Made by a program: the position numbers and the translations under genes
Shown here: piece after piece, positions 2,451 to 39,762 of the stretch
Layout: every line of letters starts with the position of its first letter
How positions within the stretch are numbered: the stretch's first letter is position 1
From: Escherichia phage 236Ecol005PP
DNA length: 64,000 nucleotides
Sequence record: PP434423.1
Reading direction: 5' to 3' (one strand)
Notes under the pieces: generated by a model
Told to the model about the DNA's origin: nothing
What the model saw: the letters and a program-made list of their open reading frames with translations, nothing else
The model's database searches: none

Positions 2451-4264
2451 TGTCTCATCCATTCTTTACGAAGGTCAGCATTATCTCCCATGAGCATTTC
2501 AAAAAGCTCTTTCCAATTCTCAGGAAGTTTAACAACATCATATACTGGATTTTGAATCATCTCACGATATTCAGATTTTTCCAGAGAGCCAAGTCCCTTA
2601 ATATAACGGATGCTATGTTTAGGTAGAGCATCTTTGGCACTCTCATATTCAGCGACTGTATAAAACCATTCTTGTTTTTTACCGACCTGAGCGATGATTA
2701 CAGGAGTTTTGACAAAGCGAATTCTTCCTTGTTCAAACAGTTCTGGCCAATTACTAAAAAATCCGAGCAGAGAAGGATAAATGCTTCCTAGACCATCATG
2801 GTCAGCATCGGTCATAATAGCAATATTATGATAATTCAAGTTTTCAGCCTTTTCACCAAGAACTAATCCAGTGATTGCGCAAATATCAAACAGTTCTTTG
2901 TTTTTAAGCATATCAGCATATGACATACCCCAACTGTTAAGAACTTTACCGCGCAATGGATAACCACCATGAAGTTCTTTATCACGAACATCAATAAGAT
3001 ATCCAATAGCCGAATCACCCTCAGTCAAGAAAAGAGTAGTGTCAGCATCTTTACCACAAAGATTCGCTTTAATATGTTTATGAACCTTAGCTTTAGAAAC
3101 CTTTTTAGCTGCTTTAGTTTCTGCTGCTTTTTCTGCCGCCAATTTACGAGCCAAGGCAGCTTCAATAATCGGCATTAAAATTGCTTCATTATTTAGAATA
3201 GCACGTGAAATCTTTTTAGCATCAAGCTGAATATGACTACGGATTTCACCAAATGGAGAAGTCAAACGCTCTTTAGTTTGAGAATCAAATCGCATGTTTT
3301 TCATATCACGAACAAACATAACGATAGTCAAACATTCTTTAACACGTGCTTTAGTTACATCAATTTTGAACTTGCGTTTGATTTGTGGAATAAGGTCTTC
3401 ACAAATATCATCCATAACACAGTCAATGTGATGGCCACCATTCTTAGTATGAATGTTATTGACGTACGTCAACTGACGAAAACCATCAGGTGAACGACCA
3501 ACCGCAATAGAACAATTTTCTTGTTCTTGAACGATAGCATGTTCATCATACTGCCGTGCATATTTCTTAAAATTACCCTGAACTTTTTTACCATTAAAGG
3601 TAAATTGAATATCAGGATAAACTACTGCAAGTGTCTGGAGACGATCTAATGTAATGTCAAGATAAACCTGAGATAGCTCATTAGTTTCAAATGACATAAA
3701 ATCAGGAATGAAAGTAACGCGAGTTCCTTTCCATTTTCCAGGAATATCTTCCCATGATTTATTTTCCATGCCATTTGAACAACGAACTACAATATTATTT
3801 TGACCATCACCAGTTTCACCAACAAACATCACAGAAAAAATGTTTGTCAAACTAGAACCAACACCATTCATACCGCCAGTGACGCGTTCTTTATCATCAC
3901 CGAAGTTACCACCTGCTTTTGGAATAGTCCATGCAGCAACAGGACCAGGAATTTCTTCGCCGGTAGGTGTTTTAACCATCGCCTGTGGAATACCGCGACC
4001 GTTATCTTCAACTGTTACTTGATTGTTTTTAATAGTAACATTAATTTTATTTGCGAATTTAAACTTAGTACGAATACCTTCATCTACTGAGTTATCGATA
4101 ATTTCATCAATAAGCTTAACAAGACCAGGTACATACTGAACACTTTCCCATTTACCAAACAGAAAGCGCTCATGCATTTCATTAGCTGAAGAGCCAATGT
4201 ACATGCCGCTACGCTTTTTGATATGTTCAATATCGCTCAGAATTTTAATTTCATTCTTAATCAT
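2447..4264 (-). CDS. 39: DNA topoisomerase II large subunit, GyrB-like ATPase plus Toprim in one uninterrupted ORF
   Basis: 605 aa from ATG at 4264 (GAGGA SD 6 nt upstream); ELVDNSVDE-like ATPase motif and LTEGDSA Toprim motif. Confidence 0.9.
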   Translation of the reverse strand: MIKNEIKILSDIEHIKKRSGMYIGSSANEMHERFLFGKWESVQYVPGLVKLIDEIIDNSVDEGIRTKFKFANKINVTIKNNQVTVEDNGRGIPQAMVKTPTGEEIPGPVAAWTIPKAGGNFGDDKERVTGGMNGVGSSLTNIFSVMFVGETGDGQNNIVVRCSNGMENKSWEDIPGKWKGTRVTFIPDFMSFETNELSQVYLDITLDRLQTLAVVYPDIQFTFNGKKVQGNFKKYARQYDEHAIVQEQENCSIAVGRSPDGFRQLTYVNNIHTKNGGHHIDCVMDDICEDLIPQIKRKFKIDVTKARVKECLTIVMFVRDMKNMRFDSQTKERLTSPFGEIRSHIQLDAKKISRAILNNEAILMPIIEAALARKLAAEKAAETKAAKKVSKAKVHKHIKANLCGKDADTTLFLTEGDSAIGYLIDVRDKELHGGYPLRGKVLNSWGMSYADMLKNKELFDICAITGLVLGEKAENLNYHNIAIMTDADHDGLGSIYPSLLGFFSNWPELFEQGRIRFVKTPVIIAQVGKKQEWFYTVAEYESAKDALPKHSIRYIKGLGSLEKSEYREMIQNPVYDVVKLPENWKELFEMLMGDNADLRKEWMRQ

Positions 4265-4606: not shown

Positions 4607-4970
4607 ATTTAATGGCTTGAAGCAGACTAATAACTCTCAAGCGACTTCTTTCATCTTTAACTGTAAAGGAAAGAGGGTCACCAGATTTCATAGTGATAGT
4701 GCATCCAAAATCAAAATTTTCGGGAACTTCTTCGAAGAAGTCAAATTCTTCAGCATAAATTAGAACATTACTCTGCATACTGTGAAGAATTTTTCCGTCA
4801 TTTCCAGATGCTGTACTAATCATCGTAACATTATGACCTTTCATATCTTCAACGATAAATTCGCTTGTAGATATTACAGCATTAATAGAACCATTCCTAT
4901 AAATAGCAGACATTAGATATTTCTTTTCTTCGCCTTCGCGAATACGATATTTCTTACCGATTTTAAACAT
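4599..4970 (-). CDS. hypothetical protein
   Basis: ORF-track ORF; ATG at 4970 is third codon of the GTG-initiated track ORF. Confidence 0.5.
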   Translation of the reverse strand: MFKIGKKYRIREGEEKKYLMSAIYRNGSINAVISTSEFIVEDMKGHNVTMISTASGNDGKILHSMQSNVLIYAEEFDFFEEVPENFDFGCTITMKSGDPLSFTVKDERSRLRVISLLQAIKFE

Positions 4971-14978: not shown

Positions 14979-15648
14979 CATCTTCTTTTCTGAATAAGTA
15001 AATTAAATTCTTAAGAGCTGAACTTGTTACATCATATTTTCCTTTAAGCGCCTTTACAACCGGGCCTGTTGCTGGTTTACCTAAAGAAACCCATAACTCG
15101 TGTATTTCGCTTTTAAGTGGTTCATGCCAATGCGGTGCTTTTCTTTGCGCCCTTGAAGTTCCTTCTGAAATCTTTTTATTTCCGCCATTTGAATAAAACT
15201 TTTTCATTACTTCAGATTGCCGAGCTTTTCGTTCTGCTCTATTTTGGGCTATACGTTGTGAATTCTTCATCCGAGTTTTTGTTTCAGGGTTGTTTAATCT
15301 AAGTTTATGTTCTAATCGTTGTTGCTCAGTCCATTTTCTTCCTTCTCCACCCTGACCACCAGGAGAAATATTAATGCAAGTATCTGGGTGTTTACGTTTT
15401 AATGCAGATATTAGCTCGCGTTCAACTTCATATGATTTTTCTCTAGAACCATGGCATTTTGACCAACGTATTTTATAATTAAAACCATACTTACGATATA
15501 TGTTCCATAGTATTTTGCCTGAACCCGGATATTTATCATCATATGGATTTACAATAAATGATTCATGTTTTCCAGCGTACCAAAAGACGCCTTTCGGCGT
15601 CCTAACTTTTACTATATATGTTCTATAAAATTTTTGTTTAATACCCAT
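14974..15648 (-). CDS. segF: GIY-YIG homing endonuclease (SegF-like)
   Basis: GIY-YIG N-terminal motifs; 224 aa from internal ATG; lies between soc and 56 as segF does in T4. Confidence 0.65.
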   Translation of the reverse strand: MGIKQKFYRTYIVKVRTPKGVFWYAGKHESFIVNPYDDKYPGSGKILWNIYRKYGFNYKIRWSKCHGSREKSYEVERELISALKRKHPDTCINISPGGQGGEGRKWTEQQRLEHKLRLNNPETKTRMKNSQRIAQNRAERKARQSEVMKKFYSNGGNKKISEGTSRAQRKAPHWHEPLKSEIHELWVSLGKPATGPVVKALKGKYDVTSSALKNLIYLFRKEDV

Positions 15649-16153
15649 TATCTTGACGTTCAAAATTATGTTTATTTTTCAAATAATAAAGTTTAAAAAT
15701 TTCTTCCGCATTCATTCCAAGGCCAGCAAACATATTTAATACGAAATGAAATATATCCACAAGCTCAAATTTAATTTCGAGCTGATCTTCTGGGGACATT
15801 TCATCAATGCGTTTTTCTTGCGCTTCAATATAACGTGCTTTCCATTTTTTCCAAACTGCCGATGCATCTTTTTCACCACGTGACATTTCACCAAGAGAAG
15901 TCAGAAGTTCGCGGAATTCATCATCAATACAGTCTTTTTGTTCACGCATCCAAGAAACAACATCACCGGCAGTTTCTAATTTATCTGGATGATAGCAGTA
16001 TTCGCGGTCATTTGCTAAACGAACTTGCAGAGATTTCTGCATATCAAGCATAACTTGCAGTGGGTCTTTTTCATCACCGAGAATATCCCAGTATTCGTTT
16101 TGAGCTTTATCAGCGCCTTCGATCAGTTGACTACATTCGTTAAAGTATGCCAT
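15638..16153 (-). CDS. 56: dCTPase/dCDPase
   Basis: 171 aa from ATG at 16153 (MAYFNECSQL); matches recalled gp56 size and position. Confidence 0.8.
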   Translation of the reverse strand: MAYFNECSQLIEGADKAQNEYWDILGDEKDPLQVMLDMQKSLQVRLANDREYCYHPDKLETAGDVVSWMREQKDCIDDEFRELLTSLGEMSRGEKDASAVWKKWKARYIEAQEKRIDEMSPEDQLEIKFELVDIFHFVLNMFAGLGMNAEEIFKLYYLKNKHNFERQDNGY

Positions 16154-16184
16154 TATTTTTCCTTTCAATTCATGAGTTAGTAGA

Positions 16185-16216
16185 TTAATTATACAATAAA
16201 TATATAAAGCAATAAG
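16185..16216 (-). promoter_or_regulatory. middle promoter (MotA box ATTGCTTTA plus TATAAT) upstream of gene 56
   Basis: plus aagcaa 16207-16212 and attata 16188-16193. Confidence 0.45.
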
Positions 16217-16224
16217 GAGGATAT

Positions 16225-16425
16225 ATGGTACAAAAATTAATGGCACTTGTTAATGCCATAAAAGGTAATAAAAAACGTATAGCTTTTACTATTTCTGCTA
16301 TGATAGGAATTTTACTTTGGAATTTTGTTTTATCGCCAGTTGCTATTGCTCATGGCGTTAGTATTCCAGTAGTTACTCTTGATACATTCGTAGATTTAGC
16401 ATTTGCTTTAGTTGGGTTAATTTAA
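16225..16425 (+). CDS. small membrane protein on the plus strand
   Basis: 66 aa, two hydrophobic segments; strong SD AAGGAGG 6 nt before ATG; stop overlaps gene 61 stop region. Confidence 0.5.
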   Translation: MVQKLMALVNAIKGNKKRIAFTISAMIGILLWNFVLSPVAIAHGVSIPVVTLDTFVDLAFALVGLI

Positions 16426-17450
16426 ATCTTAGCATATTTAGATAGCCGCATTTTAGCCATTAACCCCTGGGCAATATTATTTTTCATATATTCCATAATT
16501 TGTTCAGGGGTTGCACCTTCCTTTCTAATCATATCATTAACATCTTTTGATTTCCAGGGAGATTTATCCCAAAACATAACCCTTTCTCCTGCATCAACTA
16601 ATTTAGTCATTCGTTTAATAGTGTCAGGGTGACGAGGTTCATTATCTAAGACCCACACTCGTCTATCTTTAAATGGAACAACTTCTAGGTCTAATTGACC
16701 ACCCGTAATAGCTATACCATTTTCAATAAAAAGTGAATCTATAGGTCCTTCTAGAACATATACATCACCATTTTTAACTCGTTCGACTCCATATATTTTT
16801 GTTGCCTCAGGATAAGCTTTGATGGTGATATATTTTTGAGGAGCATCTTTCTTTAATGCACGTCCTTGAAAAGACTCAGCTTTTCCATTAGCATTATAAA
16901 TTGGAATAACAAGACGAGGCTCAGGTATTTCCTTTTTATATGTTCCCGGTGCTATGCTATTAACTAATTTAGGCCATTCGGTTGTAAACCAAAGATATTT
17001 CCATTTGTCCTTTGGAATACAACGAGCTTTTACGTATTTTATAATTGGATGGTCTTCCGCCAGTTTATCTAATCTAATGCATGACGGAAGAGATTTAATT
17101 ATTTTCTTCTCAGGTTGTTTAGGAAGTTCTTTAGGTTTTTCTACTGGACGACTTTTACCTTTTTCTTTTCTTATTTCAAAGATATACTCACGATATAAAT
17201 CAGGTTCAAACTCCTTTAAATATATTCCGATTGGTGCATGATAGTTGCAGTTATAACAATGAATATTTCCTTCATTATTATCGCCATAATACCATCCACG
17301 GGCTTTATTTTGGTCGGTTTTTGAATCTCCACAAACAGGGCATCTAAACCGCAATTTAAAAGTTGAACTATTATTTACTTGTGTGAATTTAGGTAAATGA
17401 GCTAATGCACGGTATGCAAACTCATTATCAATCCAAGGTATTGATGACAT
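16422..17450 (-). CDS. 61: DNA primase
   Basis: 342 aa; N-terminal zinc-binding CPVCGDS...CYNC and Toprim-like core. Confidence 0.9.
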   Translation of the reverse strand: MSSIPWIDNEFAYRALAHLPKFTQVNNSSTFKLRFRCPVCGDSKTDQNKARGWYYGDNNEGNIHCYNCNYHAPIGIYLKEFEPDLYREYIFEIRKEKGKSRPVEKPKELPKQPEKKIIKSLPSCIRLDKLAEDHPIIKYVKARCIPKDKWKYLWFTTEWPKLVNSIAPGTYKKEIPEPRLVIPIYNANGKAESFQGRALKKDAPQKYITIKAYPEATKIYGVERVKNGDVYVLEGPIDSLFIENGIAITGGQLDLEVVPFKDRRVWVLDNEPRHPDTIKRMTKLVDAGERVMFWDKSPWKSKDVNDMIRKEGATPEQIMEYMKNNIAQGLMAKMRLSKYAKI

Positions 17451-17452
17451 TT

Positions 17453-17617
17453 TTACTCTTCTTTTTCTTTAGATTCCTCTTTTTTCTTTTTAGGAATCTG
17501 TTCAGGACCTTTATTTACTACAGCGCCTGACGTTGTTCCGGTAGAGATATTTTCAGGATTACCGCCTGAATCTCCAGCGACCATATCTTCTTTAATAAAT
17601 TCTTTATATGTTTTCAT
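17453..17617 (-). CDS. small hypothetical protein (61.1 position, sub-threshold ORF)
   Basis: 54 codons, MKTYKEFIKEDMVAGDSGG...; stop 2 nt before gene 61 start. Confidence 0.35.
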   Translation of the reverse strand: MKTYKEFIKEDMVAGDSGGNPENISTGTTSGAVVNKGPEQIPKKKKEESKEKEE

Positions 17618-17618
17618 A

Positions 17619-18230
17619 TTAACCTCTATTCATAAAAGCATTAAAAATTTGGTCATCAATAGACTGTTTTTCTGATGGTAATTCATATCCACATATTACA
17701 ATTTTGTGATCAATATCAAAATACACAGAAGCAATATGATTAATGATGTTTTCAGTAAAGTCTAAATCAACATCAATATCTTTTTGACCACAGCCCAAAG
17801 GATAAATAATGCGAGTAATTCGATTATCTTTAACAAAGATTCCACCGACATACTCTGTGCTGCGTTTAAAGTCTACACGCCGACGAAATGAAAAATATTC
17901 AGGCTCTTTATGAGCTCGGCTCATAGGACACAACGAGTAACTAGAATAAGAGATGTCAAATCCTACGCCTTCAATATGAGCCAAAGTATCATGATTAAAC
18001 CAATTATAATCGTACGCCAAATCCATTAAATTATAATATGTAAAAGGCACCGGATTAACATCATTAGTCACAAGCATGTAATTAGCAACTGCTATAATTT
18101 CATTGTTTTTAACGAATACAAACCGCGATTGATGTGAATGACCTGGACCCGCGTTTTCACGATTAATGATATAACACTGGGCACCTTTATATTTGTATGT
18201 ATCTTTGCACTTGTGCATTTGATAGAGCAT
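17619..18230 (-). CDS. hypothetical protein (61.2 position)
   Basis: 203-aa ORF. Confidence 0.5.
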   Translation of the reverse strand: MLYQMHKCKDTYKYKGAQCYIINRENAGPGHSHQSRFVFVKNNEIIAVANYMLVTNDVNPVPFTYYNLMDLAYDYNWFNHDTLAHIEGVGFDISYSSYSLCPMSRAHKEPEYFSFRRRVDFKRSTEYVGGIFVKDNRITRIIYPLGCGQKDIDVDLDFTENIINHIASVYFDIDHKIVICGYELPSEKQSIDDQIFNAFMNRG

Positions 18231-20520: not shown

Positions 20521-20883
20521 TTAAAAGAATTTAAATTTTTTCTTTGACCTTTTATTAAATGCATCTTGTAGTTGCATTGTAATACACTTTTCTACATGAG
20601 GAGCTAGCTCAGCTTTTCTTTCTTGGTCAAGAACAGCAAAGTCCATTACGACTTTTCCATCAACCCAATCTAATTTTGTCACATACACAATGTGTGTAGA
20701 ACCATCTTCTAGTTTAATGACAATCTCCTGGATAACATTTTCCATGGCAGATTTAATTATCTTAAGAGATTCATTAAAAAGACGTTCTTTTCTTTCTTCT
20801 TCCCCCTCCGAAGAGGGGGATTCATCGATAATTTCTAGATCTAAATCTAAATCATCTTTATTCATTAAATTCTTCCATATCAC
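20521..20883 (-). CDS. 40: gp40-like protein (head vertex assembly chaperone position)
   Basis: 120-aa acidic protein between 41 and uvsX. Confidence 0.45.
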   Translation of the reverse strand: MIWKNLMNKDDLDLDLEIIDESPSSEGEEERKERLFNESLKIIKSAMENVIQEIVIKLEDGSTHIVYVTKLDWVDGKVVMDFAVLDQERKAELAPHVEKCITMQLQDAFNKRSKKKFKFF

Positions 20884-22039: not shown

Positions 22040-22338
22040 TCATTTTTTCCATAAGCATCATTATATTTTCCTCACGGTTTAATAGAGGGTTTATACTTAG
22101 AGTAACTACATTAAAACTTATTTAAGATAGAATAATTTTATCACTCAATCTTTTAGCATTATCGCTTGAAGTCTCAGTTAACTGGGCGTTTGGCTATTCG
22201 ATGAAATTCTCTCTTTTCTAACCAACATAACAAAAAGTCCCAAAAAAGCAAACAGACCTAAACCGATAAAGCAACAAAGGTCCTAACATTTATTCCACCG
22301 GTTAAAGATAAATAACTTTCTAATAATAGTTCATAATT

Positions 22339-23393
22339 TTATAAGTCAATAGCTTTTTTGAACGCATCTTGCCATTCGGCTTTCTTTGCACGAGTTTTAT
22401 TTAAAATATCATGTTGAATAGAAAGCATCTCTTTACGTAAAGCATCACTGCGTTTTAACTCATTGACTCTATCAATGAGTTCAGCACGATTATTTACATA
22501 AAAACGAGCATCATTAATAATTCGATGTTTGGTATCAAATTCTTCATCAATTAGCATCACCGCATCAGATGCCATTGTTTCCCAGACGCGTAAGGTAATA
22601 AAGTTGTCATTGTAATTCTTGTCACCAATAATTAATGCAACGATAGCTTGACTATTCTTTTCAGATACCATTTCATAGGAATTTTTCCAGTGAACACTGG
22701 AGCTTTGGTCCAAGGATATTTAGGATTTTTAAATTGTTTTTCTCGTGCAGTGCCAAAAAACTCAATATTTAAACCTGTGTCAAATAAGAATTCTACCATC
22801 TTGGATTCGCGTTGACCAGACCGAAATGAACCACCATAAATAACATCCAAAGTTTTCTTGGTAGGCTTAGATATTTGAAAATCGTTTATATGAATTTTAT
22901 ATTGTTCAATAGGAAAATATTCGAATTCAATAACATTATCAACTTTCTTATGCGCAGCCTTAGCAATGTTTAAATTTATACCTTGGGAAATCACTTTAAT
23001 TGGTGATTTAATTAATAGCTCTTCTTCAGTGTACAAATATGCCCATGGTCTATTTTTAACATTTGGCCAAGACTGAGAAAATGGCAAACGTATATCTGTA
23101 AATAAATAATAAATTTTACTTTTGTATTTTGCCATAAATTTTTGCGCAGATAAAACTGCTAAATTAGGTTTACCACCAAAAAAGTTAATAGAAGAATTAA
23201 CAACTATCAAACGGTCATAATCATTAACATCTACTTCATCAAAAGATTTAGTGTAAACATCATTTTTAAGAGAAATAATGTCGACATTAAGACCCATTTC
23301 AGAAATAGCTTTAAAAAGATAAATAGTTTCAGAAGATGAAATAGTTTTAAAATCAATAACATTATTACCCATATTAATTATAGCAATTTTCAT
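22339..23393 (-). pseudogene. bgt: DNA beta-glucosyltransferase, apparently disrupted by a -1 frameshift near 22670-22676
   Basis: two adjacent-frame ORFs (253 aa N-terminal, 124 aa C-terminal) whose joined length is about 351 aa; junction KIPM / MVSEKNSQ. Confidence 0.6.
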
Positions 23394-33370: not shown

Positions 33371-34386
33371 TGTGTTGCCTCTACATATAGCTGATTTGCA
33401 TATTGAATAAGTGCTTCGCGGTCAGAATCAGTGATGTCTGGAATTGCATTAATGTATTCTTCCATCAACGTCTGAAGAGATTGAACTTCAACTTCTTCAC
33501 TATCATCTGACTCGACAGAGTTATCAATCTTTGACACAACTCGTAATGAATGCACAACTTTTTCTAGTTCAGATTCGAACTTCGTTAGATTTTTGTCTAC
33601 TTCAGTTACTATAACACGTACTGATAGATTTGTAAAATCTTTATAGTCAATTTTTCCCTTAAATGGATATTGAATTCGACGATGCCAGGTAGTGTTGTTT
33701 GGAATAAATTCCATTCGTTCTGTTTCTGTATCAAACATCCAGAACCCGCGAGGGTCATTCTCGTCACCTGCAGTTAGTGTCCATGGTGTCCCAATATATC
33801 TGACGTTAGCAGCCTCAGAGATAGTATGGAAGTGACCAGACCACACCTCTTTATAAGTCTTAAGGAAATCAGGTTCAAGACCGTGAGATTTCATTCCTTT
33901 ATAAAAATAAAATCCATTCAGCTCCCAGTGACCAACACAAAAAGAAGCAGATGAAGTTTTGATGTGTTCAAGAATTTCACCAGTATTTTCTTCGCACATC
34001 CAAGGAATTAAATCAATCAAACATCCGTCAAAATCTACTGTAGTAGGCTTATCATATACTTTAACATTAGGATATTTAGCCAAAAGCTCAGTAGAAGCAT
34101 TTGGATGCATTACATTTTTATAGTGGAGATCGTGATTTCCTACAATAGTATGTAATGTGATTCCAGCGGCATCAAGCATTTGAACTATTTCACGAGCAAA
34201 CTCCATAGTTTTATGCGTGATCGCTTTTCGTACATCAAAAATATCACCGTATTGAATCCATGTAGTAATTCCATTTTTCTTAGAATATTCTATCGCTTGT
34301 TTAATTCCATCAATTTGAATACCGCGAATCCATTCATCATCAGCTTTAACGCCTAAATGCCAATCACCCAAGTTTAGTATTTTCAT
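33367..34386 (-). CDS. 47: recombination nuclease subunit (Mre11/SbcD-like phosphoesterase)
   Basis: 339 aa; MKILNLGDWHLG and GNHD phosphoesterase motifs. Confidence 0.9.
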   Translation of the reverse strand: MKILNLGDWHLGVKADDEWIRGIQIDGIKQAIEYSKKNGITTWIQYGDIFDVRKAITHKTMEFAREIVQMLDAAGITLHTIVGNHDLHYKNVMHPNASTELLAKYPNVKVYDKPTTVDFDGCLIDLIPWMCEENTGEILEHIKTSSASFCVGHWELNGFYFYKGMKSHGLEPDFLKTYKEVWSGHFHTISEAANVRYIGTPWTLTAGDENDPRGFWMFDTETERMEFIPNNTTWHRRIQYPFKGKIDYKDFTNLSVRVIVTEVDKNLTKFESELEKVVHSLRVVSKIDNSVESDDSEEVEVQSLQTLMEEYINAIPDITDSDREALIQYANQLYVEATQ

Positions 34387-34987
34387 GGTGTCTTTTCCAT
34401 CCTAATTTAGCTGCTTTTGAAACTAGTTCTTTAATTTTTCCTTTTGTCCATTCAGGACCAGGAGGTTCATGACATAACATTTGCTTAACTCCGTTATTAT
34501 ACCATTTTTTACCTTTATTATGTGATGAAGCTTTAAATTTATTTGACCTTCCTTTTACATAACCTTCTGGAATATACGGTAAAAAGGCAGATTTTCCTGT
34601 TAATGGGTCATGTGAATGTATGTTTCCTTTACAATTATGAGAACCATATAATGGATGATTTTGTCCTTTAATATCTCTTCCAAATGAACCTTTTGGAGCA
34701 GCATATGACATATTAAAGAATAATGGATTTTTAACCGCATTATGCAAACGTTGATAATATAGCTCGCATTTAATAGCTTCTTCGCGCGTATCAAATTCAT
34801 CTAAAATGCATGAATCAAATAAATGTGGGTTATTTGAAAGTTCTTCATTATAAATTTTCTTATACTTTTTAGATAAAACTGATCCATGATAGCCGGCTAA
34901 ATGCCTATCTAAAGATGTAGATCCAATATAAAAAGGAGGAAGTTTATCTCCACTATATATTGTTAAATAAGTTATATATTTTTTCAT
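34364..34987 (-). CDS. GIY-YIG homing endonuclease (Seg-like)
   Basis: 207 aa; LTIY ... FYIGST GIY-YIG motif; C-terminal KKWYNNG motif. Confidence 0.65.
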   Translation of the reverse strand: MKKYITYLTIYSGDKLPPFYIGSTSLDRHLAGYHGSVLSKKYKKIYNEELSNNPHLFDSCILDEFDTREEAIKCELYYQRLHNAVKNPLFFNMSYAAPKGSFGRDIKGQNHPLYGSHNCKGNIHSHDPLTGKSAFLPYIPEGYVKGRSNKFKASSHNKGKKWYNNGVKQMLCHEPPGPEWTKGKIKELVSKAAKLGWKRHHENTKLG

Positions 34988-39435: not shown

Positions 39436-39604
39436 GGAGTTTAATTTCCTTAGCAACTGAACTAAATACAGCACGGTCACAAATCATGCGTTTGTTCCAT
39501 TTAAGTACAGTATAATGAACATCTAGATCATCTACTGCTGTAACAATAACAATATGTCCGTTAACACGATAATACTGGTCCCTTTTAATCTCTTTATCAA
39601 CCAT
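39428..39604 (-). CDS. small hypothetical protein (sub-threshold ORF)
   Basis: 58 aa MVDKEIKRDQYYRVNGHIVIV... Confidence 0.3.
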   Translation of the reverse strand: MVDKEIKRDQYYRVNGHIVIVTAVDDLDVHYTVLKWNKRMICDRAVFSSVAKEIKLHG

Positions 39605-39631
39605 ATCAATTCCTCAAAGGCAATTCATATG

Positions 39632-39667
39632 TTAATAATACCACAGTTTGAACTTCTTGTAAACAAC
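39632..39667 (-). promoter_or_regulatory. T4-type early promoter (GTTTAC / TATTAT)
   Basis: plus gtaaac 39659-39664, ataata 39635-39640. Confidence 0.45.
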
Positions 39668-39762
39668 TTTGTGAAAATTATTTTAGGGAATGATAAGAAG
39701 GGAACGATAGCTTAGAATGGTAATATACAGAATGTGAGAAAGAAAGGCCCAGAGGGCCCGTC

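Follow-up and report, generated by a model that had tools for sequence, protein, structure and literature searches.

Does the single plus-strand open reading frame (ORF) that lies between genes 56 and 61 of Escherichia phage 236Ecol005PP encode a protein, and did it take the place of dam, which phage T4 carries at this site? Both questions were raised by an earlier sequence-only reading of a stretch of 64,000 nucleotides from this phage (record PP434423.1), which is referred to below as the window. The answers given here draw on comparison of the locus with T4 and its relatives, on the pattern of substitutions in the reading frame, on the signals that surround it and on the predicted properties of its product.

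The plus-strand ORF and its surroundings

The interval between genes 56 and 61 holds an ORF of 66 aa with an ATG start at positions 16225-16425 of the plus strand, exactly where the sequence-only reading had placed it. On one side, gene 56 (dCTPase; 15638..16153, minus strand; 94% aa identity to T4 gp56) is divergent from the ORF and has its start codon at 16153..16151. On the other, gene 61 (DNA primase; 16422..17450, minus strand; 99% aa identity to T4 gp61) is convergent with it and ends at 16422. The resulting gap measures 268 bp, in agreement with the earlier estimate of about 270 bp. The stop codon of the ORF (TAA, 16423-16425) and that of gene 61 (16424..16422) interlock within a TTAA tetranucleotide; the described abutment of the two genes is thus borne out, with their coding sequences overlapping tail-to-tail by 4 nt. 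An identical overlap occurs in T4T.

The ORF is preceded by the Shine-Dalgarno (SD) sequence AAGGAGG at 16214..16220 on the plus strand. The gap to the ATG is 4 nt (ATAT) and not the 6 nt given earlier. As had also been observed, the start region overlaps the minus-strand middle promoter of gene 56. Read from the sequence, this promoter consists of a MotA box, TGCTTTA (16211..16205), followed after a spacer of 11 nt by the -10 hexamer TATAAT (16193..16188); in phage fPS-2, the corresponding site bears the annotation "predicted middle promoter".

The ORF had been called the only convincing plus-strand gene in 64 kb. This is essentially right, with the exception of a homologue of T4 gene 55.7, of 28 aa, which is also encoded on the plus strand. 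It lies intact at window positions 39554-39715, inside a longer ORF of 53 aa that ends at 39715. The annotation of T4T likewise lists only dam.1 and the 28-aa 55.7 as plus-strand coding sequences in its first 67 kb.

The same gene in T4 and the absence of dam

From position 12 (the end of rIIA) onwards, the window and T4T are colinear, with 87-98% identity per aligned block and several indels; around the gene 56-61 locus the identity is about 94-95%. The best match to positions 15600-17500 is Salmonella phage Lv5cm (98.4%), and T4 matches at 96%. In view of these matches and of the colinearity with T4T, the phage is therefore a Tequatrovirus.

The T4 genome (NC_000866) does carry dam between genes 56 and 61, as the sequence-only reading had supposed. 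The ORF, preceded by the same SD, is present there as well, between dam and gene 61 (positions 3007-3207 of our T4 locus, L001), with an aa identity of 94% in a global alignment and 95.5% by tblastn. The T4 copy is left without annotation in NC_000866, in AF158101 and in the old records K03113 and M30001. Elsewhere the ORF is annotated as dam.1 (T4T, ADJ39749.1), as RB32ORF030w (RB51) and, in hundreds of records, as a "hypothetical protein". The T4T and RB51 proteins share with the ORF its length of 66 aa, its strand, its SD and its 4-nt overlap with gene 61. Searches with the 66-aa peptide thus found homologues in T4, T4T, RB51 and the PHROG 2024 family, which bears the label "unknown function". 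The match to phrog_2024 (E=8e-31) aligns residues 2-66 with positions 1-65 of the 65-position profile, and this full-length match is accompanied by the family's position between gene 56 (or dam) and gene 61, with the opposite orientation to both and an end at the stop of gene 61. The gene is therefore already catalogued, as dam.1 and as PHROG 2024, and the coding sequence at 16225..16425 can be described as its orthologue.

The difference between the window and T4 at this locus is confined to a single exchange of 899 bp for 20 bp. By blastn, colinearity extends up to window position 16193 (T4T 16811) and is resumed at window position 16214 (T4T 17711), where homology with the dam-containing phages restarts. 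The intervening T4T segment (16812-17710), which comprises dam, its promoter region and the region upstream of dam.1, is missing, and a segment of 20 bp (16194..16213) is found in its place. Among the 504 phage records that match the 381-bp junction of the window, 322 show the contiguous, dam-less junction (about 64% of Tequatrovirus records), and dam is present in 184 records. The dam-less order, in which the plus-strand ORF is flanked by the minus-strand genes 56 and 61, is also found in Mosigvirus, Gaprivervirus and Kanagawavirus, and it is the sole order seen in those three genera. An allele of the ORF that is 100% identical to that of the window occurs in a dam-containing genome (L009). 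Moreover, dam is not the only insert found at its site, which is occupied by a homing endonuclease gene in fPS-2 and by dam together with a further ORF in Lutter.

These observations bear directly on the earlier proposal that the ORF had replaced dam by a cassette swap. The proposal accounts for the presence of dam between genes 56 and 61 in T4 and for its lack here, but the T4 sequence itself refutes it, since the two genes stand there side by side; the identical allele next to dam and the prevalence of the dam-less order argue in the same direction, and we consider such a swap extremely improbable. Since T4 carries both genes, since the dam-less order is that of the majority and since the identical allele has been found beside dam, dam is an accessory insert next to a resident gene. 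The variety of the inserts likewise indicates that the ORF is resident and that a variable insertion site separates it from gene 56. The absence of dam from the window is the common state of the locus.

Conservation and selection on the reading frame

Plus-strand homologues that lie between genes 56 and 61 and abut the gene 61 stop are found in four genera of the Tevenvirinae, and this synteny was traced in 12 further loci. In addition to Tequatrovirus, these are Mosigvirus (loci L006, L015 and L017), Gaprivervirus (L003, L005, L016 and L018) and Kanagawavirus (L004); an unassigned contig of 175 kb (L019) carries a further copy. The ORF is 48-55% identical to the Gaprivervirus and Mosigvirus copies. 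In the 12 type-A sequences, which represent three genera, the reading frame is free of stops throughout and is open at 61-69 aa, whereas four of the five alternative frames contain 2-10 stops each. The remaining frame, which is antisense and in phase with gene 61, has zero or one stop and a lowish pN/pS; the scarcity of stops is attributable to the hydrophobic composition encoded by the sense frame. A minus-strand gene in this phase was considered and rejected, since the frame is broken in the window and in Gaprivervirus and the codon-position pattern is wrong.

Variable columns in the 12 sequences are distributed over the three codon positions as 45/20/56, position 2 being the least variable. 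Comparison with Mosigvirus gave pN/pS values of 0.32/0.78 (Fisher p=2e-8), and comparison with T4 gave 0.026/0.171 (p=0.001). For most pairs with unsaturated dS, dN/dS is 0.14-0.24, and it rises to 0.35-0.50 within Gaprivervirus. The ORF evolves faster than its neighbours: it is 55% identical to its Mosigvirus counterpart, as opposed to 74% for both gp56 and gp61. Judged by these substitution patterns, which show purifying selection, the ORF is a real protein-coding gene.

A second, type-B paralogue (VR26_032 in Gaprivervirus; PP425_gp033 in Kanagawavirus) resembles the ORF in size, locus, strand and the core motif W-N-x4-P-x-A-x3-G-x3-P-x-V, but is only 23-31% identical to it and has a His-rich rather than an Asp-rich tail. 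Residues M1, W32, N33, P38, G44 and P48 are invariant across both types. Gaprivervirus carries types A and B in tandem, and Kanagawavirus has only type B. In Gaprivervirus VR26 the two diverged tandem paralogues are located at 2495-2692 and 2701-2901 of locus L003. The second copy is N-terminally truncated in L018 (2759-2899), and in EAWsc9 (L005, 2692-2811) it is not annotated, its place being taken by an unannotated gap of 119 nt. The tandem copies look like the result of a duplication followed by decay.

A late-promoter-like box upstream of the ORF

Upstream of the ORF, at 16195..16202 on the plus strand, is a T4 late-promoter-like box, AATAAATA (consensus TATAAATA, positions -13 to -6), with the conserved core ATAAATA. 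This core is invariant, 17-27 nt 5' of the ATG, in 12 of 12 loci, which represent at least five lineages with otherwise unalignable flanks; the GGAG(G) of the SD likewise holds its position throughout the 12 loci. The base that precedes the core varies by lineage (A, G, C or T) and is not T in most of them, and the Kanagawavirus box is a perfect T4 late box, TATAAATA. The T4 box reads GATAAATA, and the equivalent GATAAATA was annotated as a promoter by the depositors of phage Lutter. The setting of the box differs between the two phages: the upstream neighbour of T4 dam.1 is dam, whereas gene 56 occupies that position here, and the -10 hexamer and MotA box of its middle promoter lie on either side of AATAAATA. 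Among the 50 T4 late promoters listed by Geiduschek and Kassavetis, 32 are perfect and 9 have A at -13, which makes A the commonest variant at this position (PMC2988020), and Nolan et al. reported that -13 is poorly conserved in T4-like phages (PMC1524935).

The early and middle transcripts of T4 are all counterclockwise, and only late transcripts are of either polarity (PMC2988020). Counterclockwise corresponds to the minus strand of the window, and the plus-strand ORF should therefore be late. From this polarity, together with the TATAAATA-type box upstream, we infer that the ORF is a late gene. RNA polymerase carrying gp55 would start at the AATAAATA box, near position 16208, and would produce a leader of 17 nt. 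A scan for sigma-70 promoters found 12 candidates against 9.7 expected, which is the background level, and placed no plus-strand candidate for the ORF.

Late-type boxes are scarce in the window as a whole. ATAAATA was found 13 times against 42.2 expected (a 3-fold depletion) and TATAAATA 4 times against 11.2, both counts being below those of all 100 shuffles; such avoidance would be expected if late promoters arising by chance in the early region were selected against. The plus strand carries eight copies of ATAAATA, and only that of the ORF has an SD and an ORF downstream. The minus strand carries five, four of which precede SD-led ORFs, namely soc (annotated in T4), an ORF of 157 aa at the position of gene 49, an ORF of 70 aa that is the size of rI.1, and an ORF of 123 aa. 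The T4 late genes located within the early region (soc, 49 and rI.1/rI) each have a TATAAATA box about 30 nt from the start codon and share with the ORF the layout of a box, 22-30 nt, an SD and an ATG; they differ from it in that they lie on the minus strand with their neighbours and have T at -13, the ORF being on the opposite strand with A at -13.

Two further sites on the plus strand were noted in the course of this survey. A perfect TATAAATA at window positions 4898-4905, antisense to the gene 39 region, has neither an SD nor an ORF downstream and could be an orphan late promoter that makes an antisense RNA. Four copies of ATAAATA are clustered within 1 kb (22308-23325), antisense to the beta-glucosyltransferase gene, and none of the four leads to an SD-led ORF. 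In the T4 literature, searches for dam.1 or RB32ORF030w, for ribosome profiling and for unannotated small proteins returned no match, and the HIDEN-SEQ preprint does not mention the dam locus.

A terminator-like hairpin and possible antisense transcription

The 5' part of the ORF contains, on the minus strand, a hairpin that resembles an intrinsic terminator (16230..16259), with a stem of 8 bp (16259..16240) followed by a T-run. It is antisense to codons 6-12, and the records of SA21RB and fPS-2 list it as a terminator. The hairpin is restricted to Tequatrovirus loci and is lacking in the other genera examined. The same 20 nt thus encode MALVNAI in one direction and specify a terminator stem in the other. 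The hairpin is likely to represent the 3' end of the gene 61 transcript and, given its position, gene 61 transcripts would carry a 3' UTR that is antisense to most of the ORF (codons 6-66). On the plus strand, no terminator-like site was found between the stop of the ORF and position 20598, and late transcripts would therefore be expected to continue into gene 61 in antisense. An Rfam scan of positions 15500-17600 returned nothing meaningful.

These antisense features invite two readings in which the peptide is absent or of minor importance. The conservation of the locus might be due entirely to non-coding signals, namely the gene 61 terminator and 3' UTR together with the dam and gene 56 promoters, with the ORF left untranslated, as its omission from the reference annotation of T4 and the presence of the hairpin inside it could suggest. 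Such signals would hardly keep a frame open at 61-69 aa when synonymous sites are saturated (pS 0.7-0.8, compared with pN 0.32-0.34), nor would they leave codon position 2 the least variable; moreover, conservation of the hairpin does not extend beyond Tequatrovirus, but every locus has the SD and the ATG. We therefore regard a purely non-coding origin of the conservation as very improbable. Somewhat less remote, but still unlikely, is that the late promoter mainly yields an antisense RNA that extends from about 16208 into gene 61 and silences the primase mRNA late in infection, the peptide being secondary. The lack of a plus-strand terminator-like site as far as 20598 agrees with this proposal; purifying selection on the peptide, the conserved SD and the tandem paralogues of Gaprivervirus are all left unexplained by it. 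A conserved coding gene, probably expressed late and encoding a membrane protein, is the reading that we retain.

Predicted protein and possible function

The product had been described as having two hydrophobic helices, of which one stands as a clear transmembrane (TM) segment (residues ~19-41). The other, C-terminal helix (52-63) contains two Asp residues and is too short and too polar to span the membrane alone. An AlphaFold2 model built from a shallow alignment (pLDDT 76) places helices at residues 2-13, 16-42 and 52-63, and the summed Hessa dG is 0.4-2.3 kcal/mol for residues 19-41, as compared with at least 4.4 for the C-terminal windows. The N-terminus has five K/R and no acidic residue (charge +5), and the C-tail has two Asp and no basic residue (charge -2). 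From this charge pattern and the positive-inside rule, a single-pass N-in/C-out topology with a short periplasmic amphipathic helix is therefore predicted. The product would thus be a bitopic inner-membrane protein, with its basic, amphipathic N-terminal helix in the cytoplasm, a TM helix at ~19-41 and an acidic tail of 24 residues in the periplasm. The invariant Trp32-Asn33 and Pro38 in the TM helix suggest that the protein acts through helix-helix association, with copies of itself or with another membrane protein.

Searches for relatives with an assigned function were made at several levels. Scans of 10 family members against Pfam, NCBIfam and PADLOC gave nothing usable, with no Pfam or NCBIfam match at E<=10, and a sequence profile search of the PDB gave only chance-level matches (E about 0.4-0.7). 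A word-indexed search of 5.8 billion proteins recovered only the dam.1 family itself, as did an exhaustive profile search of 1.84 billion representative proteins, in which all six representatives found belong to the family. With Foldseek against the viral models of BFVD, family members and chance-level helical matches were obtained, those to holins having E>5.

A few database records (one GenBank record and one UniProt entry) carry the label "holin", and a holin or pinholin-type lysis protein would suit a membrane protein that is small, is probably made late and has a polar residue within its TM helix. The label, however, rests on no detectable homology: no holin model of Pfam or NCBIfam was matched, the structural matches to holins are at chance level and the PHROG label gives no such function. 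Neither homology to a described holin family nor a lysis-cassette or endolysin/spanin neighbourhood was found; the gene is not near the lysozyme gene e (T4T 66483-66977) or any other annotated lysis gene, its flanks being dCTPase and primase at all loci. In addition, T-even phages already possess holin T, which is regulated by RI and RIII. We consider the holin assignment unlikely.

The RI antiholin, holin T, Imm and Sp of T4 are small proteins that act at the inner membrane or in the periplasm, Imm and Sp being early. The predicted dam.1 product resembles them as a small phage-encoded protein of the inner membrane and periplasm, but has no detected sequence or profile similarity to any of them and, in contrast to Imm and Sp, does not appear to be an early gene. 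By way of a guess, which we put forward with little confidence, dam.1 would modulate envelope events or the timing of lysis late in infection through contacts of its TM helix. More speculative still is a scheme in which dam.1 is an overlooked late envelope protein (acting, for example, in lysis timing, lysis inhibition or late superinfection control) and its expression may be organized like a type I toxin-antitoxin pair, the 3' UTR of the primase mRNA being antisense to the ORF and the late promoter antisense to gene 61. Both RNAs are predicted, and a gene 61 transcript ending at the Tequatrovirus-specific hairpin (16259..16240) would be antisense to codons 6-66.

Mosaicism elsewhere in the window

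Gene 56, which lies next to segF, is sharply mosaic. Among the Tequatrovirus loci compared, gp61 is 98-99% identical to that of the window, whereas gp56 is only 67-79% identical in several of them (L009-L013, L021 and L022 compared); this pattern fits marker exclusion mediated by SegF. An ORF of 207 aa at window positions 34364-34987 (minus strand), between gene 47 and the a-gt region, has no counterpart in T4T and, judged from its N-terminus, is a putative GIY-YIG/seg-type homing endonuclease. Conversely, the window lacks the T4T segments that carry mobA, segA and mobB.

Significance of the locus

On comparative grounds, we consider the ORF to be the orthologue of T4 dam.1 that is resident at this locus. 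This conserved accessory gene of the Tevenvirinae is always arranged tail-to-tail with gene 61, and we assign a probability of roughly 0.7 to its being a real gene that is expressed late and encodes a membrane protein. The T4 RefSeq and reference GenBank entries (NC_000866 and AF158101) thus lack a conserved, selected and probably late-expressed gene, and transcriptomic, proteomic and gene-essentiality screens that use their annotation would not score dam.1. It is also clear from this locus that dam is an insert which T-even phages may have or lack. Beyond annotation, the dam.1 finding matters little; if dam.1 did have a role in lysis control or in the envelope, a system that has been studied very thoroughly would gain a component.
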